NCBI GenBank assembly: GCA_964035575.1
Contig: OZ037843.1
Location: forward strand, 1,054,001 to 1,118,000
DNA length: 64,000 nucleotides
From: Rhynchopus sp. YZ270_cl-10
Lineage: Eukaryota
Reading direction: 5' to 3'
The notes under the pieces were generated by a model, which did no database searches, had not been told where the DNA came from, and worked only from the letters and a program-made list of their open reading frames with translations. Within the stretch, counting starts at the first letter, position 1. Every line of letters begins with the position of its first letter. Below, piece by piece: positions 1 to 63,091 of the stretch. The position numbers and the translations under genes were made by a program.

Positions 1-252
1 CCGTGGTGCGCGCTTTAGAAGTAATTTGTTTGTTTTCATCATTTACCGTCGGGGGCACGGGGTCCTGAGCGGACCCTGCGATGCCCAACTCGCTGAAGGG
101 GAGGTGTCGTCACTCACCTGGGTCCGTCATCATGCCAAGGGTTCTAGTCTTGGCATTCCGGAGCTGCTGCCCCTTGTGTGTGTGTGTGTGTTTGATAACT
201 AGTAGGGGTAATTCTTGCTCAGAATATGGCCCCAAAAAGGGGGGGGGGGTGC

Positions 253-3200
253 TCACGTCACGGCAGACGCCCCCGAAGGGTCGTGACGGTGATGCAGTGG
301 TTGAGTGCCTTCCTGGGCCGCGTGCTTGAATTGCGGGTGGCAGGAGTGGCAGCACTCGTTTAGGCTTTTTCTGTCCAAGTGGCAGGCCCCACAGCGCGTC
401 AATCTGTGGCTCAGGCAGAAGTCCATCACAAGCTCAAGGCCATCATCCTCTCTGTGGTGCAGGTTGCAGCATGTTTCCACTACGGCTCGCACTTTCACAC
501 AGGACACACATCTGACTTTTCCGTGGCTCTCACATGAGATGATCTTGGCGTTCTTGCGGGCCCCCGCGGGGGCTGGTCGCGGGGGTCTGGACCTGAAGGC
601 TGCAGTGTCCACCGCTGCTCTGCCCCGTACCTGGCTGGATGCCTCCGTCCAGTTCGCGGCGTAGTGGTCCTGGGGGTAGAACCGAGCTGCCCATGCTTGG
701 CTCTCCTCATACAGGATGGAGCTAGGGCCATGCGGCTGTTCGCTGCGGATGTTGTGGGTGTTGTGGGCGTTGAGGTGGCGGAGGACGGCCTCTGTCTTGG
801 CGGAAAGCACAGCCCGTCGGTTTACCCCTTGCACCACTGTCCCTCCGAGCGCTGTCAGACTGGTGACACCTCCCTCTTTGCCTCTGGTCCAACTGTCGAC
901 TTGGACCACACTGCGTAGGTCACGGGTGAGGCTCTGCAGTGACAGTGATTTGGCCCATACGCTCTTTTGGAAGAGAGGGTATTCTGTAGCTGCCTGGCTT
1001 AGCTGCTCCGCCCTCGCAACTTCGACCGTATCCATCGCTTCATTGCTGAGAGCGTCAGCGTCAGTGTTGAGGTTCCGCTTGACGTGGCGCCATTCGATGA
1101 CGTAGCGGGGTTGCAGGTTTCGGATTTGGGCCCTGATGCGGTGGAGGAATGGCTGGAGGTTCTCTTTGCATTTTGTGTTCCCCTTGATGTGCTCGATGAT
1201 CAGTTTGGAGTCGCCGTATATGGTCGCCTGGCCACACACTTCTGGGGGTAGGTCGCGAAGAAGGCAAAGGCCACTGCTAGCCCCTTCGTACTCGGCAACG
1301 TTGTTGCTTCTTGCAAATGGCAGGGGCGTAGCTACGGATGCTGCCTTCACCCCGTCGATGTATACAACTGCTCCTGCCCCTGCCCTCGCAAATACCGTAC
1401 CGTTCTGTCTAGCACCACCATCAAAGAACACCTCTGTGCCCCGGCGGCCTTCTATGGTGTTGCGCACAGTGCACACGGTTTGAGACGCACAGTATGGCTG
1501 ATATCTGCGGTTCTTAATACCCGGCAGGGAAAGTCCCGTGGTCAGCTCGAAGTCTATTGCGAGCTCAATGTAGCTAATAGAGTGCTCCGATCCGTTATGC
1601 GCCCATTGCAGACTGTTTACCCAGTGGTTGGTTGCGTACCATAGGTCTTCACTGTGTTTCCATGTGGCCCCCACGTCTTGGTAGCGCAGTGAAGGGAGTT
1701 GCACTCGCATGGGTTGGGGAGAAGACCATCCCCATGGGTAGTCAACCAGGCGGTGGTGGCGGGCCGTCTCTGCTGGGCGGTCATCTCGAATCTGTCTTTG
1801 CCTGACTATTTCTATGAATAGCCTTTGCAGATTACTCACTAGTGCGATCCTCTCGTGGTCGTCTCGCGGGAGAACGTTGTCGTGGCTGTCGTGACGGTAC
1901 CGTGGTGCCACCCCGCAAATGACCAGGCAGTTCGGCCAGTCCGTCCTGTCCGCGGCTGCAACAGGGTGACGGCTGCGTACCTCCTCCCACGCACTGCATT
2001 CCCACCACATATGGCGAACTGTTTCGCGGGCTTCGGTCTCACAGTAAGGGCATCCGTCGGTGATGAGGCCGGATCTACCCGTTGTTGTCATTGCCCCTGC
2101 AATGATGGAGCGAAGGATGCCTTTCTGGTACCCGGTTAGGTTGCTCTTGGGGTCTTCCAGCAGGTGCCTGGTCACTCTGCCGTCAACACCATGTTGGAGT
2201 CCGTCGTAATCGCTCGATCGCTTGTTCGCAAGGGACCTCATTAGGGCATTCCGCAGTTTGTGACGTGCCTCAGCCTCCACTGACGTGGCTTGCTTTTCGG
2301 TGAGGGTGTCAACGTCCAGCAGAGTTTGGTCTCCTGATTCGTTGGTGAATCTGACTCGGTTGGGGGCAACCCAGTCCCACCCCAAGGCGTTCAGTGATTC
2401 ATTGAGGAGGAAGAACGGTCCGTAGGACAGGGAATCTCTGTGCTGCCACGCCACCGCACATAGATGTCTGCAATTTTCTCTTCTCATCTGTTTGATCCAC
2501 GCACGTAACCTGCGAATGTGGAAGACCATCTCCGGGTCCAGTCGGTGGCCGTGCTGTAGGATGTGCATGACCGCCACCACAGCACGTCGCGAAGGCCCGG
2601 TCCAGACAGCTGCTGTGAAGTTTTTCTGAAGTTTTGCCCGTTTCTCCGGGGACAGGTAAGTCACAGACGCGCCATAATAGCACTTTGACCCCGCAGTCAT
2701 TGCCGCTATGTGGTCTCGGTGGTTTACTGGTGTTGGGAGGGACCGCACCCTTCCCAGGTTCTTCACCGCGTTGGAGGACCTGTTGGAGATGCGATTGGAG
2801 ACGGGCAAGGAGCTAAGGTTGGCGCCTGGTTGTGCGTGCTGCATGACCCCTGTGCTGTCGAAGCTGTTCTTGACAGGGAGGAACGTCGGAGGGTTGTGGC
2901 ACATTAGCTCTCCGGTTTGCACGTTGATCACCTTGATTTCACATGGGCGCGTGCGGCACGTGGAGAAGGTGAGCGACTTTGAGACACTGATGTCCATCTG
3001 GGTGAGGTGAGAGAAGATCACTGTTCGGTCAACGGCCATCTGCTGGAGCTGGTGAGATGGGGCAGTGGCGTAGATGTCGTCAACGAATGATGTGGTCTCA
3101 GCCCCCTTGCTGTCGACCTCACGCATCCATACGCTGATAACAATGTTTATTAGGATCACACTCAATGGGCACCCCTGCATGATACCATTGGTTGGCGTGA

Positions 3201-6102
3201 AGGGTTCTCCCACAGACCCGTTGCACCGGAAGTGTCTCTTCATCTTTACATAAGCCTCTCTGAGTACCGATAGCACCACTCCATTGAAGCCCAGTCTCGC
3301 TGCAAGGCACATCGCGATGTTGATGGGGACGGTATCAAAGCATTTCTTGAAGTCTATGGCTACTCCGAAGATGTGTTCACCGGTGAGGTGTGCGCATTCT
3401 AGCTGTGCTGCGAGGTGCCAGTACAAGTCCTCCGTCCCGTGTTTGGGCCTGCACCCGTGCAATCCTGCAGGTGACAACTTGTCCAACCACGGGAAGGCGG
3501 ATTGAGCACGTATCGATGCCCATATCCTATAGAGGACCGCCGTGATGGTGATGGGTCGTTGCGACAGGGGGTCTCCATCACTGTCTGGTTTTGGGATTAG
3601 CGGCACCAGTGCTTGCATGAGGGCTTCAGGCCACACTCCATCCCGTTCGACGGCATTTAGGCATTCCACAAGGATGGTGATGATAGAGTCAGGTAGCTGT
3701 TCCACTTCGTGTGCTCTCCATCCGTGCATGCCTGGTGAGGTGGTACGCTTCATTCGTTTGAGTGCCTTGCGTACATCTTCCACCTTGATGTGTTCACATG
3801 TCATGTCTTCTGCCGCCGGTAGTACATCTTCGTACACTGCGAGGAAGGAGTCCCAACTTGGCTCGGGTGAGGAGGCGTATTTTTGGAATATACCACCCCA
3901 TGCCTGGTTGTCTCTGAGGAGGGAGTCAACCTTGGCTGGGTCAGCCGTGAGAGTGCCATCTTGTTGCTTCATGAACGCTGCCGGCGTTGTGAAGCGGTCA
4001 GCCACATAGTCAAAGATGGTACCTTGACCTTTGCTTCCAACGTTTTGCATGGTGTGCTTCCAATGCAGACTGCGTTGTGCCTTCATGGCGGCAAAGGCTT
4101 CTCTCTGGGAGCCTTCGAGTTTCTCTAGGAGGCGGTGCAGGTAATCCACTCCGGGGTTTGGGACGAAGAGGGCCTCAGTGATCTCGTCCCTCAGCGGGCC
4201 TCCTCGGAGTCGGGACAGCGCCTCCCACGCGTACCTCTCCCTGCGGGTCATTGCGTACGGCTTGTCCACAAGCAGTCTGGCCCTTCCTATTTGGAGAAGC
4301 GTGCGTAGGTTTCCCATGACAGCGTCCCTCGCCCTTGTTAGCTTTGAGGACGCCCCATTTTTGCTGCTGTGCTTTGTGGCGTGCCTGGCCGTCTTCACGA
4401 GGGATGTCTCGCTTCGCCCGCAGTAGTCAGAATGTGGGGACGCTATGTTGTCCTCATGGAGGAGGAGTAGGAACTTCTCACCCACCTCTGCAAACTCAGC
4501 AAGCTTGCTTTCTCCTGATGCCTCGCTCCTGTCCTTTTTCTCCAGCTGGCTAGCAAATGTCACCGCAGTCTCTGGGGTGTTCCTTGGTCTATCCAGTGGG
4601 AAGGGCTTGGGGAGCACGCATCTTCGGGTGCGGCCAGAATATACGTTTAGGTCGAGGGTGAAGGTGAGCGGTACATGTGTCGGGAAAGGGCAGTCGTCGA
4701 AGCTGGAGTCAACTGTCACTTTATAGATCGCTGGTGCTGCCGTCGCATTCGCCAGGCACATGTCAATCCGCGTTCCGCTCGAGTTGGCCGTTCTGCAGGT
4801 GAAAGGTGGAGGGGTTCGCTGGGCAGCGGCTAGGCTCTCCGCCACATCAACCCATCTTCCAGATCTCTGCGCTGCCGCAAGAGTGACGCTATTGGAGGCG
4901 TTGCAGTTGAAGTCCCCGATGATGATGACTGGGACTGCGTGACCCAGACCAGTTGCCATCTCCAGTGCGTCCTTGATGAGTGCTTCTCGTTCGGCCGCCG
5001 CCTCCTGGCCTGCGTGTGCGTAGAGGGAGATGACATGGAAGGCAGCCCCTGCGCCCACCGCAACAGCTGTGTGGACCACCCTCGTTGAATCGTGGCAGCG
5101 TTTTTCCACCGGTGATTTTGGCGCGATGGTTTGCGCTATCAGGCCACTCTTGGTCATTATCGCCACGCCTCCCGGTGCGATTTGCTGGCGCTCGCCTCCT
5201 CCCGTCTTTGTGAGGGCCTTTCCCCAGTGTACCTCCCTTCCTTTTGCGTGGAAGTATTGCCCATGTGTGCCCATGTGTTCCTTCCCGACCCTTGTCTCCT
5301 GTAGGGCAAGGATATCAGCCGGGAGGTCAGCCACGTCACGGTAGTGCGTTTGCAGCGACGTTACGTTGATGGTGGTGATGGTTAGGGGTCTGGGTGCGGG
5401 TGTAGGCGGAGCTCGGGGTTGCCGTCTGTTCCTGTTCGCCGGAGACGGTGCCTCGAGGGGGAGAATGCCGTTCTGACAGGCTCGTAGCCTTCGGAGGAGA
5501 GCCATCGGGATTCTGAGTGAATCGTAGTGCTCAGGTCTGTACGTTAGTCCCAGCACACGGTTCCGTTGGGCAGGGCAGCCCTCACGTCGCAGTGTGCCAC
5601 GACTTCCCGTGCTGGCGTTGAGGACCCATATCTCCGCCTTGAGGACCGTCGCTGCCGCCTGCAAGCAGAGGTGGTCCCCGTAGGTGCCGTCACGGCTCAT
5701 GTGGTCCAGGTACATGCTGAACGAGGTCGTGGCTGCTGCCGGCCCGGCTCCATACAGGTACCTGGACTCTTCGTTTGTGCGCAGGTGGCTGATGACGTCT
5801 CTGCGCAAGGAGGCCGCACATATACTCCCGGTGCATTGTGAGGCGAGCGCCCTAAAGAGGCAGTTGCCGTCCCCAGGGATCACGTGACGGGAGGTGTGCA
5901 AGCTCGCTGCTGTCCGGTCCAGCCACACGTTATTTTCTGCTCTCTCTGCAATAGGGTCATCCCCCCCGCCTCTCATACTTGTACGATGCTTCCCGCACGC
6001 GTGCGCGTATCCAATCTTTGAGTCGATGCTCATCTCTGGAGATGCTGGCGTTGTTACAAGCGGGAGATATACTTTTGGAGGGACTGCTAGGGTCGCCGCC
6101 AT
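253..6102 (-). CDS. LINE ORF2 polyprotein: OTU protease, AP endonuclease, reverse transcriptase, CCHC Zn finger, RNase H, C-terminal Cys/His repeats
   Basis: OTU: IPGDGNCLFRAL...YGDHL...HYDSL. APE: TINVTSL, LQET, GDFN, RIDMCL, PTHVP. RT: QRPIT, IDFKKCFD, GIMQGCPLS, FVDD. Zn finger: CPYC..ETVRHMWWEC. RNase H: FFDGG, NNVAEY, GDSKL, HVKRNLNTDADAL. First ATG is at 6102; the frame is open to 6252. Confidence 0.95.
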   Translation of the reverse strand: MAATLAVPPKVYLPLVTTPASPEMSIDSKIGYAHACGKHRTSMRGGGDDPIAERAENNVWLDRTAASLHTSRHVIPGDGNCLFRALASQCTGSICAASLRRDVISHLRTNEESRYLYGAGPAAATTSFSMYLDHMSRDGTYGDHLCLQAAATVLKAEIWVLNASTGSRGTLRREGCPAQRNRVLGLTYRPEHYDSLRIPMALLRRLRACQNGILPLEAPSPANRNRRQPRAPPTPAPRPLTITTINVTSLQTHYRDVADLPADILALQETRVGKEHMGTHGQYFHAKGREVHWGKALTKTGGGERQQIAPGGVAIMTKSGLIAQTIAPKSPVEKRCHDSTRVVHTAVAVGAGAAFHVISLYAHAGQEAAAEREALIKDALEMATGLGHAVPVIIIGDFNCNASNSVTLAAAQRSGRWVDVAESLAAAQRTPPPFTCRTANSSGTRIDMCLANATAAPAIYKVTVDSSFDDCPFPTHVPLTFTLDLNVYSGRTRRCVLPKPFPLDRPRNTPETAVTFASQLEKKDRSEASGESKLAEFAEVGEKFLLLLHEDNIASPHSDYCGRSETSLVKTARHATKHSSKNGASSKLTRARDAVMGNLRTLLQIGRARLLVDKPYAMTRRERYAWEALSRLRGGPLRDEITEALFVPNPGVDYLHRLLEKLEGSQREAFAAMKAQRSLHWKHTMQNVGSKGQGTIFDYVADRFTTPAAFMKQQDGTLTADPAKVDSLLRDNQAWGGIFQKYASSPEPSWDSFLAVYEDVLPAAEDMTCEHIKVEDVRKALKRMKRTTSPGMHGWRAHEVEQLPDSIITILVECLNAVERDGVWPEALMQALVPLIPKPDSDGDPLSQRPITITAVLYRIWASIRAQSAFPWLDKLSPAGLHGCRPKHGTEDLYWHLAAQLECAHLTGEHIFGVAIDFKKCFDTVPINIAMCLAARLGFNGVVLSVLREAYVKMKRHFRCNGSVGEPFTPTNGIMQGCPLSVILINIVISVWMREVDSKGAETTSFVDDIYATAPSHQLQQMAVDRTVIFSHLTQMDISVSKSLTFSTCRTRPCEIKVINVQTGELMCHNPPTFLPVKNSFDSTGVMQHAQPGANLSSLPVSNRISNRSSNAVKNLGRVRSLPTPVNHRDHIAAMTAGSKCYYGASVTYLSPEKRAKLQKNFTAAVWTGPSRRAVVAVMHILQHGHRLDPEMVFHIRRLRAWIKQMRRENCRHLCAVAWQHRDSLSYGPFFLLNESLNALGWDWVAPNRVRFTNESGDQTLLDVDTLTEKQATSVEAEARHKLRNALMRSLANKRSSDYDGLQHGVDGRVTRHLLEDPKSNLTGYQKGILRSIIAGAMTTTGRSGLITDGCPYCETEARETVRHMWWECSAWEEVRSRHPVAAADRTDWPNCLVICGVAPRYRHDSHDNVLPRDDHERIALVSNLQRLFIEIVRQRQIRDDRPAETARHHRLVDYPWGWSSPQPMRVQLPSLRYQDVGATWKHSEDLWYATNHWVNSLQWAHNGSEHSISYIELAIDFELTTGLSLPGIKNRRYQPYCASQTVCTVRNTIEGRRGTEVFFDGGARQNGTVFARAGAGAVVYIDGVKAASVATPLPFARSNNVAEYEGASSGLCLLRDLPPEVCGQATIYGDSKLIIEHIKGNTKCKENLQPFLHRIRAQIRNLQPRYVIEWRHVKRNLNTDADALSNEAMDTVEVARAEQLSQAATEYPLFQKSVWAKSLSLQSLTRDLRSVVQVDSWTRGKEGGVTSLTALGGTVVQGVNRRAVLSAKTEAVLRHLNAHNTHNIRSEQPHGPSSILYEESQAWAARFYPQDHYAANWTEASSQVRGRAAVDTAAFRSRPPRPAPAGARKNAKIISCESHGKVRCVSCVKVRAVVETCCNLHHREDDGLELVMDFCLSHRLTRCGACHLDRKSLNECCHSCHPQFKHAAQEGTQPLHHRHDPSGASAVT

Positions 6103-6214
6103 GAGAGGTAGGGAGATGAAAGGTTCGTTGGGTACATCAAAAAATGTGTGATGAGTGACGGATGGAGAGGTTGGTGGGGATGGTCGGGAGAAAGGAGGTA
6201 TGTGAATAACAATC

Positions 6215-8203
6215 TCATTGCCGATTCGGGTCCAAGCTGTTCCTAGGCACAAGAGGGAGCTGTCCTTGTTTCGTCTTGGGCTTGGAGTCCCCTTTGGTTC
6301 CGTAGGGCTGGTATGCTGCAGCTGATTTACTGCGCGGTCTGCCCTTCAGTGCGTTCTTGCCCGTCAACGTGAGCTCCTGCTGGCGTGTTTGCTGGATGGT
6401 GTCCGTGGTTGTGGTGGTCCCATCCTGGCTAGTCTCCTGTTTGTGTTGCCGTGTTTGGACCTCAGTCTGGACTGCCATGACCACAGGCTCTGCCTCTTTC
6501 TCCTGTTCTTCCCTCCGGCGTAGCGTAGCCTCCGCCATCTGGTTGGAGAGGAGCTGTGTGGCCTCCTGTTGCTGCGTGATCGCCTGCGCCGCCGCCTCTG
6601 CGTGCTCTTTGGCTTGAACCGACACCATGTTGCTTTGCTGTGCAGCTGATTGGGCGACCGCCGCTGTTCTCTCCACCTCCACTTGCGTCTCCGCCACTTG
6701 TGCAGCAGTTGCCTCCACTTGCGCCCGTGTTTCGGCCGCCACTCTGTCGGCGTGAAGTACAGCGGCGTGGGCGACCCCCGTCACTTTCTCAACCTCTGCC
6801 TGGGTGCCGGCTGCCAGGTTGGCTGCTGTTGCGTCGGTGTGGGCTACGGTCATGGCCCTCAGCTCCTCCGCCATTCGCTGCGTCTGCTGCGATAAGCGTG
6901 TTGCTGTAGCCTCGGCGTGCTTGTCTGCAGTGCTGAGCATGCTCTCAAGATGGGCCTTCATCATTTCCTCCATCCTCGTTGCTGAGGCGTCAGAGTGCTG
7001 ACCTGCCCTGTCCGCCCGCTCTAGCGCCTGGCTTGCCGCACCAGCTGCTGCCTCCGTTTGCTGCTGCAGCTTGTGGACTGCCTCCTTGAGGTGGTGCAGC
7101 TCGTTCTTTTTGATCTGCGACGAGAGGAGCGCCTCGTCGCTGGGTGCCTGGCGTTTCTTTTGCTCCACCTTCGCCATCATCGTCGAGATCATGCTCTCGA
7201 TGCTCTTGCTCAGCCGTTCAGAATCCTGGACGGACTCCACCCGCAGCTGCTGCAAAGCGTTAGTGGTCTGCTGGGTGTGCTGTTCTGCCTTTGCAGATGC
7301 CTCCTCCCTGAGTTGCTGAAGGGTGTTCTGGGTCTGCTGGGCTTGTAGGTCCGCCTTCAATGCGATCTCCTCGCGCATGTGCTGTAAGGAGGTGGCGGTG
7401 GCGGCGGTGGCTTGCGTCACGCACTGCTGCAGCCGTTCCTCACTGACACCGGGAGCAGACGCAGTAGCAGCAGCAGGTGAGGGTGCTGGTGCAGGGTCAG
7501 GGGTGGGTGCTGGCGCTGAAGCATGTGCGGATGTTGGTGCAGACACAGATGCAGATACATGTGCTGGTGTGCTCTCCTCATCCCCGACTGCCCGTAGCAG
7601 CGTCACACGCCGCTCGTTGAGGGCGGTGTCGATCGCCCACCGGTCTGCAGCGGTGAGGGAAATGGCGTCGGTGACGGTGTCGGTGTCGGTGTGGTCGGCT
7701 CTTGCACCCCCACGGCCTTTGCCCCCCCTACCCCCTTTACCCCCTCTTCCCCCTTGCCTGCTGGTCATATCCTTGGTGAGGGAGCGGAATCGCGCCAGCA
7801 TCGCCGTTGCCGCGGCGGCCGCCTCCTTCGCCTTCTTGGTCGCTTCCACCTTGGCGTTCAGAGTCCGCTCCTGCTCGACGTCAACGATCGTCAGCACTCG
7901 GTCGAAGCAGGAGATGGTGTGGTGCGGTGGGGGGTCTGTGGCGTGCACCTCCGCCTCCCCGCTCCTGCGCTTCCCCACCCGCGCCTTCCACTTAAGGCTC
8001 TCCAGGAGGGCCTCCACTTCGTTCAGGTAGGCGGTGGGGGGTAGGTTGGTCACGCGGTATAGCCGCGTTGATCGGACGTTGAGGGTGATGGTGGGGACGG
8101 GGCCATTTGCACCGGTTTTGTTGCACGAACCCACCTGGTCCCGTTGGCCGTCCGGGTGGACGTTACCGGGGGAGCCCGCGTGGAGGTGGGACTGGTGTTG
8201 CAT
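6215..8203 (-). CDS. LINE ORF1 (putative RNA-binding, coiled-coil protein), 662 aa
   Basis: Lies directly upstream of ORF2 on the same strand. Has an RRM-like N-terminal segment (YRVTNLPP..W), an RGG box (GGRGGKGGRGGKGRGG) and a long Ala/Gln/Glu coiled coil. Confidence 0.85.
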   Translation of the reverse strand: MQHQSHLHAGSPGNVHPDGQRDQVGSCNKTGANGPVPTITLNVRSTRLYRVTNLPPTAYLNEVEALLESLKWKARVGKRRSGEAEVHATDPPPHHTISCFDRVLTIVDVEQERTLNAKVEATKKAKEAAAAATAMLARFRSLTKDMTSRQGGRGGKGGRGGKGRGGARADHTDTDTVTDAISLTAADRWAIDTALNERRVTLLRAVGDEESTPAHVSASVSAPTSAHASAPAPTPDPAPAPSPAAATASAPGVSEERLQQCVTQATAATATSLQHMREEIALKADLQAQQTQNTLQQLREEASAKAEQHTQQTTNALQQLRVESVQDSERLSKSIESMISTMMAKVEQKKRQAPSDEALLSSQIKKNELHHLKEAVHKLQQQTEAAAGAASQALERADRAGQHSDASATRMEEMMKAHLESMLSTADKHAEATATRLSQQTQRMAEELRAMTVAHTDATAANLAAGTQAEVEKVTGVAHAAVLHADRVAAETRAQVEATAAQVAETQVEVERTAAVAQSAAQQSNMVSVQAKEHAEAAAQAITQQQEATQLLSNQMAEATLRRREEQEKEAEPVVMAVQTEVQTRQHKQETSQDGTTTTTDTIQQTRQQELTLTGKNALKGRPRSKSAAAYQPYGTKGDSKPKTKQGQLPLVPRNSLDPNRQ

Positions 8204-8725
8204 GGTTCGTGTGTTTTGTTTTTCCCCCTGTGTGTGTGTGTGTGTGTTTTTTTTTGCCCTTCATACCAGGGTATTAGGGTAAAAATCCAAAATTCCGGAA
8301 AAAACTGGTTTTTCTGGTTTTCTCTCCTGGGTGGCGAAAACTAGTGTTTCCGGCGAAAACCTCCACCGTTGACGGACACAGTCACCTTTTTCGGGTTTTT
8401 CGGGGGTGGGGTCAGTGTCTTATCCAGGAATCCAGATTTCAAAATATTTTTCGGCGCTGCTGACCCGGGGTAGACATTGGGAACAGGGCGCGCGCTAACT
8501 TTTCGGAAATTTCCCGAAAAAATGGATATCGGGTCCAAAAAAATGTACCTACAGGAAGTATGTGAAGGGGGGCAGAAAAATCAGGGTCATGTTACATTTC
8601 CGAGAAAATCCCGGGCTGTGGTGGGGGATATACGGAAAAATGGACAAAATTTTGGTGACTTAAATTTTCACAAAATATGAACCCATACTCGTAAACAAGG
8701 GTCATTTTCAGGTCTTTCGGACAGT

Positions 8726-8836
8726 CAGTACACAGTACACAGTACACAGTACACAGTACACAGTACACAGTACACAGTACACAGTACACAGTACACAGTA
8801 CACAGTACACAGTACACAGTACACAGTACACAGTAC
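8726..8836. repeat. (CAGTACA)n microsatellite
   Basis: Perfect 7-bp tandem array. Confidence 0.97.
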
Positions 8837-29471: not shown

Positions 29472-31943
29472 TCAGATAATTTCTATTTCGTATTCAGTGT
29501 CATACTCCAATTCCTCTTCTTCCGACTCCTCATCGCTCATCGTGTCTGCATCAAGGGCTTCTCGGTACTTGTTATTCCCACCGAGAAGCCCCAGAATGTC
29601 GCCAGACCTCCTGAGGAACACTCGACGGGCGTACTCTTCGGCCCCCACCGCGCTCTTCCTCTTGTTCTTTGCCGCTTCTGCGGTGGAGAACACTCCGTCC
29701 ACGCTCGTCACGGAGAGCGGTGTCCGCAGCCACGCGACAACCGCTGCAGACAACAGGGGGAACTTCTTCTGTGTTCCCCTCTTGCACCAGTAATCCAGTG
29801 CGCACACCTCATCAGCCAGAGCTGAGGCAGGCTGAGTTCTGTATGCCTCGAACTCCTTCCACACCTCCTCGTTTGACAGCGCGTGCAGATCGACTGTCCA
29901 CAGGCTGCGCTGGCTGTCGAAACAGGGGAAATCGTGGAAATCCCCGATCAACACCGTCTCTGGCTCAAAAATTAGCAGCAGCTCCCACCTGGAGCGTGAC
30001 TTCCACGAATTGTACATATTCTCCATCAGATCCTGTAGCGGCCGGGAGGTAGCTTCGCTCTTCATCATGCGCACGTACTCATCTAGGGTTTCGAGGCTGG
30101 TCTGTGCAGGAGAAGGATTCTGTATTTTGTTGATGACACCCATTGCAGGCTGGAGGAAGTCAGCAAGCAATACGCAGTCATCGACGTTCCTCTGCCAGTG
30201 GCCCTCTTGTATCAGCCGGGCCAGCACCCTGAGTGTCTCCGGTTTTTTCGCTCTGCCCATCTCGGAGTCCAGGAACTCCAAGAGGACGTCCGCCCGGTCC
30301 CGGATGTGGATCACGAGATCCATGGCGGCGCCCCAGCGGGTGTCGGAGGTGGAGGTCGGCTGTGCGGGAGCGACGACCTCAACGTTCTGAGCGTCGACGT
30401 CCACTTCCTCCCGCACGAACTGACGGGCCTTGCCCAGCACCTCCTCATCCGTTTCCGCAGCTGTGAGGCGCAGTAACGACCGCAGTGCTCGCACCTTCTC
30501 CTGCTTCAGCGCTGCCTTCACACGCAACCACGTGTCCTTCGTGCCACTCGCCTGCTCCTGTTCCTTCTGGATTTTCGCCAGTTGGAACAATTTCCATCTG
30601 CGACGCCTGGCCTTGCATCCGAAGAATTGGCTTATGAGCGTCGTAAATGCGTACGCATATTTGAACGCCTCCTTCACAGTGACTTTTAACACCGAATTAA
30701 GATGATGGCCCAGGCACCAAGCAATTTCCTCCGCGGCATCCGTCAGGCCCCTCAGATTTATCGATCCGTAGTCCGCCACTACCGTACTCCGAACAAGTTC
30801 ATAGTATGAGCGAACTTCGTGCAACAGATTCGCGACGTCCATACCCCTGTCCTGTTCACCGTCACAACGAGCTCGAACCATCAGGAGCACTGCTTCACCC
30901 CCCACAAAACCCACCACGGCTAGGAGGGCCATACCGATGTATCGAACCCCCGTGCCGTCTATCCCGAGGGCGACGGTTTTGCCTGACAATTTTTTTTTAA
31001 TGGCCTGCATTGTTTCCTCCGTGAATTGTTTGCTTTTATTGAGCAGTGAGCGCGGCTGCGGAAGCGTGACGAACATCGAGAGCACCAGTGCCAGAATACA
31101 TGCCTGCTGATGGGTTATGCCCGCAATTATGAGGGCAAGGGCCCATGCTCTTTTGAACGCCGTAGGGGAAACAATTGGCGTCAATACGGCTTGAGTCGGT
31201 GTTGGGGTAGGTGCGCTGGTCGTTTTCTGCTGCGCCTTCTCCTCCTTCTTCCCCTTCTTCTCCTCCACCCTCTTCGCGTGTGTCTTGTTCCGACCGTCTA
31301 CGTGGGATTTTACGCTCGTAATTTCTTGGTGCTTTATCATACAGCTACAAAGTGTGCACCAGAGCACCTCGTCGTCCCCCGTCATTCCGTCGGTCAGCAG
31401 CCCCTCTCTCACCTCGAAGGGCACGTCCTTGACCGCCCTGACCTCTATGCCAAACTGCTGGGTTTCTGTCAGTCCCTGGATCCTCGCGTCGGCTGTGATC
31501 TGTGGTTTTTTCCGTCGCGCCTTTTCAGCCTCGGCCTTGACGTCCGCCTTTAACTTGTTCGTGTCATTGGCCTTTTCTGTGGGTGTCAGTCCAGTCTTTG
31601 GGGAAGGTTTTGCTGCCGTCTTCGCAGAACTTTTCGCGCTTGGTTTTCCCGCAGGTTTTGCTGCTGCCTTTCCCGCAGGTTTTGCTGCTGGTTTTTCCGC
31701 AGGTTTTGCTGCAGGTTTTGCTGCAGGTTTTGCTGCTGATTTTTTTGTTGTTTTCTTTCTTGACGCCTTCCTCACGGGCTTCACATCGCTCGACTCGCTC
31801 TCGTCACTCCCGCTGCTACTGGGCTCCCTTTTCCGCTTCGACATTTTTTTTTGGGGGGTTTTTGAATCTGTTTTTATTGATGATGCCGCATTGGGGTGTG
31901 GGAAGGAAGAGGAATTGTTGGAAATTTCACTAGAAATGCACAT
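29472..31943 (-). CDS. hAT-superfamily transposase
   Basis: Zn finger WCTLC...H...H; LGIDGT; VVADYG; CLGHHLN (CxxH); DTRW; hATC dimerisation domain LDYW..FPLLS..LRTPLSVTSVDGVFS..R..VFLR; N-terminal AKPA repeats. The true start may be MSKRKRE. Confidence 0.9.
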   Translation of the reverse strand: MCISSEISNNSSSFPHPNAASSIKTDSKTPQKKMSKRKREPSSSGSDESESSDVKPVRKASRKKTTKKSAAKPAAKPAAKPAEKPAAKPAGKAAAKPAGKPSAKSSAKTAAKPSPKTGLTPTEKANDTNKLKADVKAEAEKARRKKPQITADARIQGLTETQQFGIEVRAVKDVPFEVREGLLTDGMTGDDEVLWCTLCSCMIKHQEITSVKSHVDGRNKTHAKRVEEKKGKKEEKAQQKTTSAPTPTPTQAVLTPIVSPTAFKRAWALALIIAGITHQQACILALVLSMFVTLPQPRSLLNKSKQFTEETMQAIKKKLSGKTVALGIDGTGVRYIGMALLAVVGFVGGEAVLLMVRARCDGEQDRGMDVANLLHEVRSYYELVRSTVVADYGSINLRGLTDAAEEIAWCLGHHLNSVLKVTVKEAFKYAYAFTTLISQFFGCKARRRRWKLFQLAKIQKEQEQASGTKDTWLRVKAALKQEKVRALRSLLRLTAAETDEEVLGKARQFVREEVDVDAQNVEVVAPAQPTSTSDTRWGAAMDLVIHIRDRADVLLEFLDSEMGRAKKPETLRVLARLIQEGHWQRNVDDCVLLADFLQPAMGVINKIQNPSPAQTSLETLDEYVRMMKSEATSRPLQDLMENMYNSWKSRSRWELLLIFEPETVLIGDFHDFPCFDSQRSLWTVDLHALSNEEVWKEFEAYRTQPASALADEVCALDYWCKRGTQKKFPLLSAAVVAWLRTPLSVTSVDGVFSTAEAAKNKRKSAVGAEEYARRVFLRRSGDILGLLGGNNKYREALDADTMSDEESEEEELEYDTEYEIEII

Positions 31944-32772
31944 GTCTTGTAAATGAAGACACAGAGGAAAAGCGTTGAGAGAGATGGCGAAGAAAGCGCG
32001 AGAAGAACGAAGAAAGTAAAGGTGGCCCTTAGGCTACTACTGTGGATTTTCGCAGAGCGACGACCTCAACGTTCTGAGCGTCGACGTCCACTTCCTCCAC
32101 GAACTGACGGGCCTTGCCCAGCACCTCCTCATCCGTTTCCGCACGTGTGAGGCGCAACGTCCGTTGCTCGCACCTTCTCCTGCTTCAGCGCTGCCTTGAC
32201 ACGCAACCACGTGTCAAGGCAGCAGAATTGACTAATGAGCGTCGTAAATGCGTACGCATATCCGAACGCCTCTTTCACAGTGGCTTTTAAAAACGCGGTT
32301 AGATGGTGACCGTTCTGTTGAGGAGCGCGGCTGGGGTGATCCCCGCAATGATGAGGGCAAGAACCAAAAAGCACCGGAGGGAAAAAAAAATAGCCAAGCA
32401 GGCTAAGGATTCTGAGAAACAGAAGCTTGCAAACGCCAGGTGCCAGGGCTAAGGTGGCGAAGAAAGCGCGAGTAGAAGGAAATAGGGGTAAAACAAACTC
32501 TCACTTTTATTTTTTTTGGTATTCCGGAGGGGGGCAATATTGACAGGCCCCTGCCACAAGGGAGGCCCCCCCCCCCCCCCTCCCCCCCCTCCCCCCCTCC
32601 CCCCCCTCCCCCCCTCCCCCCCTCCCCCCCCCCCCCCCCCCCCCCCCCCCCTGTGGCAGGGACCTGTTCGTCGGTTTTGTTCGTCGATGTTCGTCGACGA
32701 ACCTCGACGAACAAAACCGACGAACATTTTGTTCGTCGACGAACAAAAATGTTCGTCTGCACACTATGCCTA

Positions 32773-37141: not shown

Positions 37142-38622
37142 CGGGGTCCACCAAAAATCGACATTTCGCAGAGTCACCAAAGTGTAAGATTTTTTCGGCA
37201 TTGGAAAGATTGGGCCATTTCTGAGAACTTCAATAAATCAGATCTCTGATGGTGTGGCTAACTCCAAAAATAAAGTGTATTTTTTGTACTTCTTTTGTAC
37301 TTTTTTTGTATACCCTAAAAAGGGGTTTTTTTTATTTTTGGTACCAATTCGTACTTTCCCAATCGCCCCAAGTCATGGCACCCAAAAGTTCCTGGCGAAG
37401 CCACGGTACGCAACATTTCTGAAAAATGTCGACATAAATTGGCACTGTCGTTGGTAATTATCGTCAGTTCCGTAAATTTCACCTAGTATTTTGCTAGAAC
37501 GAAAGTTTCTGGCGAAGCCAGGTGCGCAACATTTCAAAAAATTGCGCTTATACTTGCACATTTGTGCTGCTGAACTATGTCATGGGAAAGGGTGGGTTGC
37601 AATCTTGCGCCGCAGGCGCACGGTACGCTACTTTTTTCGTTGGTCATATCCTTCTTTCTCACTCCTCATTGGGTTCTACGAGCTCCGTCCGTAAAATGGT
37701 GGGGTCACAACATGCAGCAAAGTTCACAGCTATGCAAACTGCCCCCACGTTCACCTTGCACTTTACCCTCAGTGGTCAAGTACTGACCATATTTTACACC
37801 AAACCTGAAAATGCCCTGTAAAAACTGATGCATGCATTTTAGGTCAAAAATACTCATTTCTCAGCGCAAAGTGACCCCATCACAGCACGCACGGACTCCC
37901 GAGAATCGAAGAAGAAAAAAAAATTCCCCAATTTTTTGTAGGCCAAAAAAAAATTCCCCCCCGACCCCGACCCCCAAAAAGTTTATACAGGGAAATAATT
38001 TTTCGCGAAAAACACCCCCAAAATAAAGTGTAATTTTTGTACTTCTTTTGTGATTCTTTTGTGCTGTTTTTGTACTGGATTTAGCCACACCATCTGAGAG
38101 ATTTATTTTTAATTCCCATTTTCATATCGGGAGTTTACGTGGAAACGCCTTTGAAACCGTGCGTTCCTTAAGGATTCTATAGGCAAAACAGGCGCTTTGC
38201 ACCAAAAATCACGAGTTTCAACACAAAACCCGGTTTTGGCTCAGACCCATGTATGTGGCGCCGGAAACACGCTTGCGCGTTGTCAGAACCCTGCGTGGGC
38301 CACACACGGTCGTGCACACGTGCCCTTTGCCTTGTCACACACCCAAAAACCCACACACACGTCATATATTCACAGCGGAAACACTACAACCATTGCTGGG
38401 AAAATGTTTGGTTCACAAAGTAAAAATAACTATTCATCTGATGAAATAAAGTGCACTTTACTAGCGTCGCGAACCCCGCAAATGGGGTTGTCAGGACCAC
38501 CACAAGTAATCTTTTACGGCTGCGCCCTTTTTGCACCAACCTCTAAAAACCCACCTTTTTCCTTTCCATCCTCCACACCACAAACTAAGGCAGAAATACA
38601 CCTTTACACACCACAGTGCACA

Positions 38623-40341
38623 ATGGGCTGTCTCGAGCGTGTACTGTCGCTTGACGGGACACTGGACAAGCAAAGCAGACATATACGAAATGTATTCTTT
38701 ATTTTCAACTGCTTAGTATTTGCAACCTCGTCTTCCTTCATCCTGTTAGAGGTGGCATCCTTCCGTGGGAGCTACGTCTTTATAGTATGTGCGATGTGCT
38801 CTTTGCTGTGCAGCATCTGTTCTATGCTAGTCATTATGTTTAAGTACGAGCTGACCACATCCGTCATGGTGTCAGTCGGCGGACTGTACGCTGTTTCGCT
38901 GCTGGGCAGTGACCTGAGTGAACGCACTGAATCTGGATATGCCTGGCCATTGATGGTGCTTGTGGTGGACTATCTCCTGGTGATGCAGGTGCCCACACGG
39001 TACAGCACAGTTGTCGTGGTGTGCACACTGGTGTATTTGGTCATTATTGCTGCAGAAGAATTGTGGAGGTTTGGTCTGCTCGACATGCCCGGGCTCGCAC
39101 CTCAAGACCGTCGACGTTCCTTCGTGGATAGCCTGGGTGACTGTGATGTGCTGCCTTGCAAGCAGAATAGAGCTGGGAAAGAGCTTGTGGGTGCAGCGTC
39201 CGTCTTCGTCCTTGACTTCATCACAACGCGAAGATTTGCACGTGGTCTCCTGAAGGAGCAGGCATCAATGCAACGCACAATCGCGACAGTGCAGGACATC
39301 GCCTCGCTCCTTGCTGGCTACGACGTGGAGAAGGTGGCGGAGCTGCTGGAGGAGCACGGTGGTGAGCTGCCTGAGGGGATGACGACAGCACTGCGGAAGT
39401 TGGAGCAGAACCTGCGTGTGTACAAGGCGTACCTCCCGCAGACGTGTCTGCCGTTTGAGGACGAGAAGGACGAATGTGTGGAACCTGGTGGTGAGCTGGA
39501 TGGCACTGACAGTAACGATGAAAGCACAGGGTCAGCGGCAACATCGAACACGTCTGTTGCAGTGCGACGCACTTCCTTCCGTGCACAGTCGCTGCTGCTC
39601 TCATCCACAAATGCAACACTGCTGATACTGAACATCAAAGACACCCTGCACCGCCTGGAGGAGGACAGTGCACGCTTCTCCGACCTCTTCACAACTGTTC
39701 TTCTGAAGACCCTGCAGGCAACAGACAGCAGACGTGGGATGGTGGACGTCTTTGTTGGGGACAGGATCCACTGCTCGTTCAACACGTCGAAGCAGTGTGC
39801 GTCGCACGCAACCTCAGCACTGCATGCAGCAAGCATGCTCATGAGAGCTGGCCTGGCAGCCTCTGTGAACGTGGGTGTTGCAATGGGGACAGTGCTGCGT
39901 GGTGACATGGGTTGTGATGTGATGCGTCGCTTCAGCATGGTGGGGACACTTGTGCGCAACGTGCACGGGATGGAACGTGCAGGACGTATGCTGGGGTGCG
40001 ACGTTGTCTGCAACAGGATGTGCTTCAGCGACGCTGAGTGCGAACACGACCTGCGTCTGCTTCCGTGCAAGGTGGAGGTTGCTCGAGACTGCGAGGCACA
40101 GGTTGTGGCTGAGCTGGTTTCGAAGAACGAAGAAGCCTCAACTGCAGCAGACGAGTGGATGTACCTGATAGGCGGGAAGAAGCACTGGGATTTGTACAAC
40201 ACAGTGGTGCGTGGGTACCTGCGTGGTGAGAGTTGTTACACGGACGTTGCGAGGGCGTGGGTGGAGGCGGGTGGGAGTGGCACACCAGCACATGCAGTCC
40301 CTTCCGGGACGTGCAGTGTTGTGTGTTCCTATCTTCGGTGA
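38623..40341 (+). CDS. Multi-pass membrane protein with a degenerate class III nucleotidyl cyclase domain, paralog 1
   Basis: About 5-6 hydrophobic N-terminal helices, then KAYLP, VDVFVGDRIHCSFN, NVGVAMG..GDMG..RRFSMVG. The ATG follows ccacag, where similarity to paralog 2 begins. Confidence 0.85.
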   Translation: MGCLERVLSLDGTLDKQSRHIRNVFFIFNCLVFATSSSFILLEVASFRGSYVFIVCAMCSLLCSICSMLVIMFKYELTTSVMVSVGGLYAVSLLGSDLSERTESGYAWPLMVLVVDYLLVMQVPTRYSTVVVVCTLVYLVIIAAEELWRFGLLDMPGLAPQDRRRSFVDSLGDCDVLPCKQNRAGKELVGAASVFVLDFITTRRFARGLLKEQASMQRTIATVQDIASLLAGYDVEKVAELLEEHGGELPEGMTTALRKLEQNLRVYKAYLPQTCLPFEDEKDECVEPGGELDGTDSNDESTGSAATSNTSVAVRRTSFRAQSLLLSSTNATLLILNIKDTLHRLEEDSARFSDLFTTVLLKTLQATDSRRGMVDVFVGDRIHCSFNTSKQCASHATSALHAASMLMRAGLAASVNVGVAMGTVLRGDMGCDVMRRFSMVGTLVRNVHGMERAGRMLGCDVVCNRMCFSDAECEHDLRLLPCKVEVARDCEAQVVAELVSKNEEASTAADEWMYLIGGKKHWDLYNTVVRGYLRGESCYTDVARAWVEAGGSGTPAHAVPSGTCSVVCSYLR

Positions 40342-44469: not shown

Positions 44470-46718
44470 TTATGTGCCCCTCCCCCTCTTCCCCTTTCCC
44501 CTTGGTCTGTGCACTCTCAGTGTCTGCTTGTCCGATGGCGGGGTGTACGTCTCCGTGGCAATAGCCTTGGCAACGTCCTTCTTCAGTCGTGGCTGAGTAG
44601 CAGGGAGCCCCAATTTCTCATACTGTTCACGAAGCTCGTGGGAGTTAAACTTCTTATCGAGTCTGTTTTCCTCCGCCACCTTAGTTTCCACTGCGTGTAT
44701 CCTCTTGTACACTTCTCGGATTGACTCCACAGGCTCCTTCTGCGCAGCAACTATGTCTTTCATTTTTAATGGGATGTGCTCCAATGATTTGGAGTTGTAT
44801 CCCCACATGGCCAGGCCGAGAACAGTGCATGGGTTCGTCTGATTCATGAGCCTGCCAGAGACCCAAGCAAGGTAGCTGTTAAACCCCTCGACATAGTCGT
44901 TGGTGCATGCGGTAGCGTTTCTCTGGGCTTCTGTGGCGTTCGAAGGCTGTGGCCAAGAAGAGAGGTAGCGGGTCCACGTTTCCTCCATCACTCCCGCAGT
45001 TTCCTTCAGGAGCTTCTTGAACTTCATGACGTTACCCTTTGTTGTGGCTATTGTTTTGGCCTGGGTAATGCCGACCAGCTCCTCAGACACCCACTCAGGA
45101 AACACCCCCTTTTTCAATACAGAGATGAGCTCTGTAATGGCAGGGTACCCAACTTCTTCGGCGTACTTGGAGTTTTTAACTCCGTCCTTCTTCAGGTACT
45201 GCAATGCCTTCAGAAAAAAGGCATTCACAAGTGTGAGCACCGCAAGCACAAGGCGGGTTTCCTTGTCTTCGAGGAGGTGCTCCAGGGCATCATTCTCAAT
45301 GGTGAGATGTCCCTTAGTCACCAAGTCCTTGTACCTGTCAGTGTGGTGATACGGGCAGCATTCGTACTAATGTACGCAAAACGGCTGCCGACTTCACGCT
45401 GCAGAGTCATGCCCGCCGGCCATCTGCCTTCTTCCGCAATGGCGTAAGCCCTCACTGCCGACCCGCTCTTCGTCGTCCACGCAGTTGCTCCGGCGTCACA
45501 AGCGGTGGCGAAGCTTCCGATCCAGGTCTTGAGACGGTCTGAGCCGTCGTCAAGTGTATTATCCAGACCATCAAGCAAAACCGTCTCGGCTGCGGACACA
45601 GTGTTCGCAATCTTGTGCGTGGCACAACCCTCGTGTTCGCAGCCGCAGAGAGGAGCGGCCCCGACCTGATCAGGTGCATGATCCCCGGTCAGTGTCGTCG
45701 TCGGCTGCACCTCTGGGCAGAGTCCCGACAGTGCGGTCTTGCACTTCGTAATCTGGCAGGCCTTGTCTTTGGCTCTACCACGCACACCCGTCTCGACGTC
45801 AAGGATGAGGGAGGCGACGGTGTTGTCCTTCTCGTTGGCGGCCCATGACACAGATACTGCGGAGTACTTGTGACCAAAGGCAAACCTTGCCCCCCCACCC
45901 ACGTCTTGCCCCATGCTGACCGCAATGTTCCCCTTGCGCTTCAGCATCCTTCCGATGAGGGTCCGAGAGAGGGGAAGTGCGAGCTTGCTCCAGTTCCGGA
46001 TGGTGCCTTCGGAGATGGGATCCATGGGGGTTTTCGTTATTGCCGAGTAGAACGTGGCAACAACTTCTCCGGTCGTGTCGGCACCAAGACCCAATCCACG
46101 CAGAACAAGCGCAAGGCGGACAATGCCGGCGGAGTACCTCTGGTGCCCCTCGTGTGTGATGAAGACGGGCATCACACGAGCCCGGAGGGTGTCGTTCTCC
46201 TGCTTCAGGGCAGCCACCCGTGCATCGCTACGCCGCACAAGTTGTTGCAGCCCCTTCACCTTCGCACGCAACTTCTCCAACGTGGCGGTAGCGTCCTCCT
46301 CATCCTCCATGCACTCCTCCTCGGCGGACAGGTCCGAGAAGTCCACTGGTCGGGCGACTTCATCGTCCGAGCTGCTGCTGGTGACGTCTTGATGCTCAAG
46401 TCTATGCTTGCGCACCCTGTCTGTGGAGCTGCGCCTCTCCGACTCCTCCTTCTCTTCCCTGCTGCGCACACGGTCGCGGTGACGCTGCTGTCGGCAGTTG
46501 TCGGCGGTGGCGCAGGAGGGGGTGTGCTCGCAGGGAATTGCGCGTCCGTGCACAGGGGTGTCCGAGTCAGCGATCTTCAGTCGCTTGCGTGGGGAGTCCT
46601 CGCCTTCCTCTGCCGCCTCTGCCCTACGAGTGTGAGCGCGTTCGCGACTACGCCTCGACGAACAGGTAGACGGGTTCTTGCATGGGGGAACATGCTCGCA
46701 GGCCATCTTAGGGGGCAT
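44470..46718 (-). pseudogene. DDE transposase (hAT/MULE-related CxxH class) split by a 1-nt frameshift near 45340
   Basis: ORFs 45318-46718 and 44470-45324 overlap. Motifs MGQDVG, TGDHA, CATHKIAN, GSRF, TNDYVEGFNS; two N-terminal CEH.P.C....C repeats. Confidence 0.7.
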
Positions 46719-47620
46719 AGTGATATCTGTACTCGTGACGTGAAGGGTGGAATGCGAGGGGAGGACACAAAAGGGAGGGAAGGATTTTTTTTTTTTTTTG
46801 TGGCGGGAAGCAGGTTTGGTAAGCGTCCGAAAGTGTCCAAGCGTCCCCACTCTTGCATTGGGGTTTGGGGTGCATCCCTTAACGTACTTTCCCCCAAACA
46901 TGGTGGGTTACACCCCCCAGGAGGTGGCAGGATGACATGTGGGGGTCCTTGGAGGCCAACGACGTGTACTTACAACTTTAACTTGAAAAAAAATATGAAA
47001 AAATACGCAAAAAACGCAGCAAAATCGGGCTAAAATAGGGCCTCGGAGCCCAAAAAACCCAAAAAAATGTCATATTTTCGACTGATAAAGCCCCAAAAAC
47101 ACATATAAACACCCTGATAACCCCAGAAAAATCATTTTGGGTGTGTTTTGGACACTTTAGATGACGCTACAGCACTTTGGGTGGTCATGCAACACATGCG
47201 GGGTATTTGAGGGAAAAGTGCGTTTTGCAACCGTTACGCAACCGTTACGCGATGCAAGAGTGGATTTTGGGGCGCATCCCTCGACGTACTTTCCCCCAAA
47301 CATGGTGGGTTACACCCCCCATGAAGTGGCAGGATGACATGCGGGGGTCCTTGGAGGCCACAGACATGTACTTACAACTTTAAATTGGATTTTTTTTTGA
47401 AAAAAAACGGGAACCTCTTTTTCAGGCTTCCACCTTTTGACGTCAGGCCAGTGTCCTAAATGATGCTGCCACACCCTGAGGGGGAGGTGTGCTGTCTGTA
47501 AACTCTGTGTGGCAACAACGGGGAGGTGACCTCCGTATATCGGCAACCCGCACGTCCTAGATGTGAAAAACGGCACCAGCCGGGACACGGTCCCGGGTTT
47601 ACTCCGGATAGAACAAAAAA

Positions 47621-62866: not shown

Positions 62867-62991
62867 TAACACTGTCCCAACGGGGAAGAGAAGGGGAAAG
62901 GGGGTCGATATCAGCAAGGTGTCGGAGGTCTACACTATATAACCAACAACGGCGTTACCTTGGGCGCAACCATGTGTGTGTGTGTGTGTTT

Positions 62992-63091
62992 GATAGAGAA
63001 ATAGGGTTATACCATCTATTCAGTAGAATAGTTAGTATATGAAACAATTGATAGAGAAATAGGGGTAATTCTTGCGCAGAATATGGCCCAT
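62992..63091 (-). mobile_element. 5'-truncated 3' end related to the LINE at 194-8223
   Basis: Shares tttgata...taggggtaattcttgcKcagaatatggccc with 191-232; flanked by catgtgtRtgtgtgtg(tg)tt direct repeats (62971-62990, 63092-63109). Confidence 0.78.

Follow-up and report, generated by a model that had tools for sequence, protein, structure and literature searches.

An OTU-class protease at the N-terminus of a LINE ORF2 protein (ORF2p), encoded on the minus strand of the window (the whole 64,000-nucleotide stretch analysed here), is predicted to act on the protein that carries it. Sequence comparison and structural modelling lead us to favour, with modest confidence, a reading in which the OTU domain cuts ORF2p after a Gly-Gly motif, removes the N-terminal leader, remains attached to ORF2p and may act as a deubiquitinase too. 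What carries this proposal is the recurrence of the motif beside the OTU domain in related elements.

Results

Layout of the element

The element, from a probable diplonemid protist, is a two-ORF LINE with both ORFs intact, and its closest named relatives are from Diplonema papillatum. It combines an AP endonuclease and a reverse transcriptase in ORF2 with an upstream ORF1, occurs in many copies (a 24-member cluster) and, in the 20 largest families listed, shows no long terminal repeat, as in APE-type non-LTR retrotransposons; among general Pfam profiles, ORF2 gave no match to a restriction-like endonuclease. Its features, all on the minus strand, are as follows.

236..8228 (-), whole element, approximate extent; ends inferred from a repeated 203-235 unit on one side and a (TG)n tract on the other
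6215..8203 (-), ORF1, 662 aa counted from the first Met
6103..6214 (-), inter-ORF spacer
253..6102 (-), ORF2 counted from Met82; the frame itself is open back to 6345
5965..6102 (-), N-terminal leader, predicted disordered (pLDDT <50, model residues 29-45); part removed in the proposed cut
5962..5976 (-), MRGG/G, hydrophobic-x-Gly-Gly motif; predicted cut between 5965 and 5964, following the second Gly
5902..5955 (-), opening helix of the OTU fold, beginning 3 residues past the predicted cut
5476..5961 (-), OTU protease domain
4654..5385 (-), AP endonuclease
2965..3597 (-), reverse transcriptase, Pfam stretch; FVDD at 3087-3076
1996..2052 (-), CCHC zinc finger
1036..1437 (-), RNase H, Pfam RVT_3 and RNase_H, downstream of the CCHC finger
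310..498 (-), Cys/His-rich region at the C-terminus, common to family P0004

The ORF2 frame is stop-free for 2030 codons (253-6345) and carries the motif, the OTU and the downstream domains in the order OTU, AP endonuclease, reverse transcriptase, CCHC finger, RNase H, with Pfam matches after the OTU to Exo_endo_phos, RVT_1 and RVT_3/RNase H. Alternative candidate starts are Met105 (at 6033) and Met124 (at 5976), the latter of which would leave 4 residues to remove. ORF1 is Ala/Gln-rich and of low complexity, with a short RGG-rich stretch; it has no Pfam family match and is probably a coiled-coil protein.

ORF1 and ORF2 might instead be fused, by +1 frameshifting or readthrough in their 130-nt overlap, with the OTU cut freeing ORF2p from ORF1p in a Gag-Pol-like manner. 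Consistent with this, the ORF2 frame is open across the ORF1 stop, a long ORF1-like region is fused to the OTU in two relatives (P0165 and L039), and in a degenerate copy (L013) the motif codons overlap with the stop of ORF1, with no in-frame Met ahead of the OTU. Nonetheless we consider fusion improbable, as such openness of the frame is not unusual (overlap P 0.30, spacer P 0.43) and the spacer, with 72% pyrimidine on the sense strand and no AG, resembles a polypyrimidine tract; moreover, a second subfamily differs in its upstream sequence above a junction at 6119. The first AGs downstream of the spacer, at 6087 and 6084, possibly mark a trans-splice acceptor.

The OTU domain

The earlier note on this DNA had described an intact OTU catalytic set N-terminal to the AP endonuclease and had proposed a search with the OTU profile, and the description is borne out by Pfam, by individual residues and by the fold. 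PF02338 matched aa 157-252 (E 2.2e-9), scoring 38.3 bits where the curated threshold is 23.3. The catalytic residues Asp159 (5869-5871), Cys162 (5860-5862), His273 (5527-5529) and Asp275 (5521-5523) lie within GDGNC (5874-5860) and EHYD (5532-5521), and model and alignment together give an OTU fold with Asp-x-x-Cys and His-x-Asp. Cys and His of the catalytic set stay invariant in all 14 aligned rows, Asp-Gly-x-Cys and His-x-Asp are kept in at least 90% of that alignment, and codon changes at the His, Tyr and Asp between the two subfamilies are silent without exception. An AlphaFold model of aa 82-298 built on the 14-row alignment had a mean pLDDT of 85, with OTUD3 (4bou) as the top Foldseek match (E 2.7e-9, rmsd 2.5) and OTUD3, DUBA, OTUD1 and Otu2 as the closest folds. 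An earlier fold from a 3-row alignment (pLDDT 55) resolved the endonuclease alone, and the ESM Atlas likewise returned endonuclease clusters alone, all under 0.9. Taken together, sequence and model indicate that the domain is likely a protease of the OTU class. The MRGG/G position coincides with the start of the predicted fold; in the model of aa 82-298, confidence at the motif is low and there is no sign of docking.

A Gly-Gly motif beside the OTU

SMRGGG lies at 5979-5962, its MRGGG portion at 5976-5962, and the last Gly of MRGG is 34 residues from Cys162. The Ser is replaced by Asn in the commoner subfamily. By itself the motif of this element is weak (shuffle P 0.066), so that support for it rests on relatives. 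It is the protein's one ubiquitin-tail-like site lying at a domain border, the N-terminal one, and since no GG site occurs between the OTU and the endonuclease of this element, leader removal is suggested rather than full polyprotein cutting; the processing of a polyprotein at ubiquitin-like sites put forward earlier was thus too wide. Other candidates were set aside. A second LRGG (aa 713-716) lacks conservation, being RHRGG in P0004 and missing from the others, and the remaining GG pairs either belong to catalytic or structural motifs of the endonuclease and RNase H or are without a large hydrophobic residue at position 4. We also dropped N-myristoylation of the exposed Gly, as GDDP departs from the consensus.

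Relatives were surveyed for hydrophobic-x-Gly-Gly within 70 aa before the catalytic Cys in 13 families with both OTU and endonuclease; motif and interval were defined after inspection of the sequences, and the families are related to one another. The motif was found in 11/13 families, against 0.94 expected from shuffles, and these include OTUs down to 23% identity to the present one. All 11 motif-bearing families have L, M, F or W at position 4, and the distance from motif to Cys was 34-35 aa in 5. Arg stands at position 3 in only 3/13, so the match to the ubiquitin tail is partial, and what sequence comparison shows to be conserved is hydrophobic-x-Gly-Gly instead of SMRGG or RGG. Conservation of a motif upstream of the OTU, as anticipated in the earlier note, therefore holds for the hydrophobic-x-GG form and fails for RGG; a lack of RGG conservation in OTU-bearing relatives is an outcome by which that note would have judged itself wrong. 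Individual families vary: P0081 (MGPGGG) is missing the hydrophobic residue, P0087 has RRGG, and P0165 has no upstream site and carries the motif between OTU and endonuclease, its OTU lying behind a long N-terminal region.

Three OTU-LINE loci found after the motif had been defined all have it beside the OTU: LIGG upstream in L013, LSGG upstream across a frameshift in L030, and MRGG downstream in L039, between OTU and endonuclease and again with the OTU behind a long N-terminal region. Among non-LINE OTUs, the motif was present in 1/49 distinct upstream intervals and 1/31 downstream ones, and it was absent from all four OTUs without endonuclease (the related DDE-transposase OTU P0166 and three others). 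Of 32 OTU-less relatives, 8 have the motif somewhere upstream and 2 within 70 aa before the endonuclease.

The GGG might also be a flexible hinge, or mere N-terminus of an ORF2p started at Met124, with the ubiquitin likeness due to chance and the OTU a plain deubiquitinase cargo as in Ginger1 and Helitron transposases. Gene callers do place the start at MRGGG in several cluster members, leaders are short in several relatives (in five, the called start is 4-13 residues ahead of the cut position), the motif lies within a predicted disordered stretch, and the Arg is not kept. A hinge, however, needs no large hydrophobic residue two places before GG, which is seen in 11/13 families (first register), and would not be expected to be near-absent beside non-LINE OTUs. 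Nor is there a Met at the motif in P0199, P0131 and P0179; in P0199, LRGGG stands 92 residues past the sole upstream Met, indicating that the motif is more than a start codon. We regard this explanation as unlikely.

Possible alternation with 2A-like signals

A 2A-like motif was found in 0/13 OTU families versus 25/32 OTU-less relatives, using a permissive pattern: NPGP closes 10 of the 25 matches, and a single one agrees with D[VI]ExNPGP. GEAxNPGP and GDIHPNPGP are among the motifs of OTU-less relatives. In a quick tree built only from the endonuclease domains of search matches, with no reference clade elements included, 11/52 branches are supported, and these force at least four changes of the OTU label; independent pairs with support number two, and in this underpowered comparison the sign test is not significant. 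Since a Symbiodinium ORF2p with OTU is reported among 2A-bearing proteins (PMC13405545), the two features are not always exclusive. Within this LINE group, as judged from sequence, OTU plus GG and 2A-like peptides look like alternative means of shedding what precedes the enzyme.

Discussion

In the mechanism we favour, the motif would fill the pockets that bind the L-R-G-G tail of ubiquitin, and the Gly frequent after the cut may take the place of an isopeptide's slim lysine side chain. Cutting in trans seems likelier than in cis, because in the model just 3 residues separate the site from a rigid helix of 18 residues. Leader removal, the role that 2A would have in relatives, would give ORF2p a defined N-terminus and leave the OTU fused to endonuclease, reverse transcriptase and RNase H, where, by analogy with tymovirus and marafivirus proteases that do both jobs, it may strip ubiquitin from ORF2p. 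In P0165 and L039, a cut after the OTU would free the enzyme.

The motif could instead be conserved beside the OTU as a ubiquitin-tail mimic that is bound but uncut, an auto-inhibitory pseudo-substrate, or that a deubiquitinase of the host cuts, with the OTU of the element acting only as a deubiquitinase. Ubiquitin substrates are indicated by the cellular enzymes closest in fold and by ubiquitin-interacting-motif (UIM) matches between motif and OTU in three relatives, which are weak (E 0.14-3.4, below the cut-off), P0179 and P0113 being UIM-type relatives, and ORF2p deubiquitinases have been linked to rescue from ribosome stalling (PMC13405545). A host enzyme, on the other hand, would need no OTU in the element, yet OTU-less relatives rarely have the motif close to the endonuclease, and in P0165 and L039 it follows the OTU, where cutting would release the enzyme. 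This account has a small chance of being right, if a slightly better one than the hinge or N-terminus.

More broadly and tentatively, with the odds somewhat against it, a broad group of protist LINEs may mature ORF2p through self-cleavage at a ubiquitin-tail mimic by a deubiquitinase they have captured. The module would have been repeatedly swapped with 2A skipping, and perhaps on one occasion with a Josephin-like protease (P0056); protease and 2A are the same pair of solutions that RNA viruses use. The N-terminal domain of P0056 resembles Josephin by eye, a tentative assignment that has no Pfam match and only a PDB match at E 1.1.

Non-LTR proteases (Ulp1, Josephin, C48, OTU) have long been catalogued and, in the literature available to us, a role in blocking degradation has only been guessed; a conserved candidate substrate site beside the protease makes that question testable. 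If true, this would be the first protease-processed LINE protein found in our literature searches. If the site is cut, LINEs join RNA viruses in the dual use of a protease/deubiquitinase and in exchanging it for 2A skipping, and a self-trimming OTU that is compact and has relaxed hydrophobic-x-GG specificity is open to study.

An OTU on LINE ORF2p is already in print (PMC13405545), likewise at the N-terminus of an endonuclease-RT protein. A 2A-like peptide led to that protein, which also contains a second RT, whereas the present element has the GG motif and no 2A; the main text of PMC13405545 contains no LRGG, and the passages available to us propose no self-cleavage. Literature searches found no GG site beside a LINE OTU, and the available text of PMC11943222, PMC6338049, PMC5890265 and PMC10161547 (the last including its supplement) holds nothing on OTU in LINEs. 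Other transposon-borne OTUs are those of Ginger1, where the domain is C-terminal, and Helitron (PMC2836005), which are DNA transposons; P0166, whose OTU is related to the present one, is missing the GG motif.

Other non-LTR elements likewise bear N-terminal ubiquitin- or SUMO-type cysteine proteases, namely Ulp1 in NeSL and Utopia-1_TSP (PMC4640811) and Josephin and C48 in Dualen (PMC8557442, PMC5029228). These belong to other protease families and accompany a restriction-like endonuclease, joined in Dualen/RandI by an AP endonuclease; for the restriction-like type ORF2 here has no Pfam match, and the available text of the three papers describes no cleavage site. APE-type LINEs with 2A (L1Tc, Ingi, CR1, L2, Crack, Rex1; PMC3708506) resemble this element in having a leader-splitting signal in the ORF2 N-terminal region, about 40-80 aa from the start, but 2A acts by ribosome skipping and uses no protease. 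Ingi-clade elements have no separate ORF1 (PMC3708506); in place of the single ORF and N-terminal 2A-like peptide of the Ingi/L1Tc clade, two ORFs and no 2A motif are found here.

The tymovirus and marafivirus proteases (PRO) are a further parallel. Besides being a deubiquitinase, marafivirus PRO cleaves LRGG-AMC and junctions of the form LxG[G/A] (PMC8348309), and TYMV PRO is likewise both (PMC3744425). The present element shares with them an OTU-fold protease in a replication protein and ubiquitin-tail-like sites, and one enzyme serving both polyprotein and ubiquitin, as in these viruses, may likewise be at work here. The viral enzymes belong to RNA viruses and cut at the PRO C-terminus and at further junctions, whereas this retrotransposon has a single N-terminal site and not several junctions separating enzymatic domains; and while TYMV PRO has a pared-down dyad, the OTU described here has a full triad and a fold nearest to cellular OTUD3 and OTUD1.

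OTU domain of the element

The element was free of interrupting stops and frameshifts in both of its ORFs:

253-6345, minus strand: ORF2 frame, 2030 codons open, containing the OTU domain and the GG motif
6215-8260, minus strand: upstream frame (ORF1), 681 codons, preceding the 2030-codon frame

Pfam searches assigned OTU, AP endonuclease, reverse transcriptase (RT) and RNase H to the 2030-codon frame and no family to the shorter one; a CCHC finger sits between RT and RNase H. The ORF2 protein (ORF2p) falls in a 24-member cluster, its closest named relatives being from Diplonema papillatum (39-43% over the searched region), which makes a diplonemid host probable. The intact OTU that the earlier note placed ahead of the endonuclease is genuine: the HMM search it proposed gave a match above the Pfam cut-off, sequence matches were to OTUD3 and OTUD5, and a fold model from a 14-row alignment (pLDDT 85) had OTUD3 as its best structural match. 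Cys162 and His273 do not vary in this alignment. Between the element's subfamily and a commoner one present in all four runs, every difference in the codons for His, Tyr and Asp is silent. In the model the domain begins at a helix three residues past MRGG, confidence being low over the motif and the leader (the ORF2 residues ahead of it).

The element seemingly lies inside a repeated unit, since 203-232 is found again at 63060-63089 (regions 170-235, 8224-8247 and 62975-63089). At 235 many contigs depart from the window and run into (TG)n, which also borders the element's 5′ end; repeated unit and flanks possibly reflect a target preference. Elsewhere, 38155-40341 and 48149-50059 (plus strand) form a paralogous ORF pair whose N-terminal segments are hydrophobic; neither ORF has a Pfam match. 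Long ORFs at 29472-32033, which has a CxxC...H finger, and 45318-46907 (both minus strand) also lack Pfam matches and look transposase-like by eye. A perfect 7-nt tandem repeat, CAGTACA, occupies 8726-8836 (∼16 copies).

A Gly-Gly motif accompanies most LINE OTUs

Relatives were sought among 1.84 billion representatives with a profile that spanned the leader, the OTU and the endonuclease, and the best 150 of 5706 matches were taken. Families were kept if they had an OTU, an endonuclease and 25 or more residues ahead of the Cys, which gave 13: the element, related proteins P0004 and P0007, and ten from those best 150 of 5706, with P0199 representing the truncated P0047 (P0001 and P0004 are closely related, 61%). 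Excluded were nine proteins truncated in the OTU or upstream part (P0037, P0070, P0088, P0110, P0130, P0158, P0168, P0172 and P0177) and D. papillatum gene models without the Cys region; five endonuclease-less OTUs were scored separately. The motif [LMFWIVY]-x-G-G occurred within 70 residues before the Cys in 11 of the 13 families versus 0.94 expected (5000 shuffles each), pattern and window having been fixed after inspection of the same sequences. Spacing to the Cys is 34-35 residues in five families, and the forms are MRGG, MVGG, LVGG, LRGG, WSGG, LAGG, FEGG, FVGG, LIGG, MRGG and WLGG. The exceptions are P0081 (MGPGGG) and P0165, whose LSGG lies between OTU and endonuclease. The observation of an OTU with its motif is confirmed, although the proposed co-conservation held for hydrophobic-x-Gly-Gly and not for Arg, found in 3/13. 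That the motif is a mimic bound yet uncut, or cut by the host, is rather unlikely. We also consider it improbable that it is a hinge or N-terminus; P0199 has LRGGG without a nearby Met, so the motif is more than a start codon.

None of the five endonuclease-less OTUs had the motif; the fragment P0087, of this kind, carries RRGGG at roughly its position. Another, P0166, is a CENP-B/DDE (pogo-like) transposase whose N-terminal OTU, related to LINE OTUs, lacks both the Asp and the GG motif. Two collection scans gave 105 OTU loci (80 kept of 128, plus 25): three unparsable, three with endonuclease or RT downstream, and 99 others. Sixty of the 99 had at least 40 residues upstream, and the motif appeared in one of the 49 distinct windows; L071 has FLGG, yet with only 16 residues upstream it is outside this count. 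Downstream, the single match in 31 windows falls within the OTU. All three LINE loci, which serve as an out-of-sample check and are each a degenerate copy, carry the motif:

L013: LIGG, upstream of OTU
L030: LSGG, upstream of OTU, across frameshift
L039: MRGG, downstream of OTU

In L013 another OTU-like stretch, with endonuclease sequence after it, lies downstream of the first OTU in broken frames (6468-7462), a nested or tandem copy.

OTU-less relatives

Among the matches listed, 35 OTU-less endonuclease matches had at least 40 upstream residues. Setting aside P0172 and P0177, whose OTUs look truncated by eye, and P0056, which may carry another protease, left 32. With a permissive pattern, a 2A-like motif was found in 25 of these 32 (10 ending NPGP, one canonical) and in none of the 13 OTU families. 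The GG motif occurred within 70 residues in 2/32 and anywhere upstream in 8/32 of the same listed matches. OTU-bearing and OTU-less kinds were interleaved in a quick tree built from 55 endonuclease domains, supported branches forcing at least four OTU-label changes. Since the independent comparison comprised just two supported pairs, with non-significant sign tests, repeated swapping of OTU and 2A among these LINEs is suggested at most. The two appear able to coexist, because a Symbiodinium ORF2p with an OTU was found among 2A-bearing proteins (PMC13405545). By eye, residues 1-190 of P0056 resemble a Josephin-like domain; a Pfam search of this N-terminal domain gave no match, and ISGG, LRGG and IRGG precede the endonuclease.

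Proposed removal of the leader

OTU enzymes cleave after the Gly-Gly of ubiquitin. On balance, we favor a reading in which the element's OTU cleaves after Gly127, probably in trans, and the cut removes the leader. The earlier note's proposal of self-processing at ubiquitin-like sites is partly supported and narrowed to one conserved hydrophobic-x-Gly-Gly site and to removal of the leader. No GG site was found between the element's OTU and endonuclease, and LRGG at residues 713-716 was ruled out as a cut site, being unconserved in relatives; the OTU would remain attached to ORF2p.

The leader would measure 46, 23 or 4 residues from Met82, Met105 or Met124, respectively. The spacer ahead of Met82 is pyrimidine-rich without AG, the first AGs lying at 6087 and 6084. 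Euglenozoan transcripts are trans-spliced, and if either AG were the acceptor, Met105 would be the ORF2 start; P0004 has a Met at that position. A deeper contig matches the element's ORF2 only to 6119 and then differs (4/4 runs), and since this second subfamily diverges there, the unit common to the subfamilies starts just above Met82. ORF1 and the 5′ part have seemingly been exchanged between subfamilies, the join at 6119 being 17 nt above Met82. An OTU cut freeing ORF2p from an ORF1-ORF2 fusion is very unlikely, the ORF2 frame being open over the ORF1 overlap no more than chance yields.

An additional deubiquitinase role for the OTU that would shed the leader is compatible with these data, sub-threshold UIM matches in three relatives lending it weak support. 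These UIM-like helices lie between GG motif and OTU in P0113, P0179 and P0184 (Pfam UIM E 0.14-3.4); another was seen by eye in L030 (4676-5095).

Comparison with known systems

An OTU on LINE ORF2p is already in print, in one sentence of PMC13405545. No GG cleavage site or OTU/2A alternation in LINEs was found in titles, abstract openings and text passages of the searchable literature, which is largely non-subscription and outside the Repbase reports, or in the supplements of PMC10161547. Ulp1 occurs in NeSL and Utopia and Josephin and C48 in Dualen (PMC4640811, PMC8557442, PMC5029228), and OTUs are carried by Ginger1 and Helitrons (PMC2836005). OTU-fold proteases of marafiviruses and tymoviruses cleave ubiquitin and also act on LxG[G/A] junctions within the polyproteins that contain them (PMC8348309, PMC3744425).
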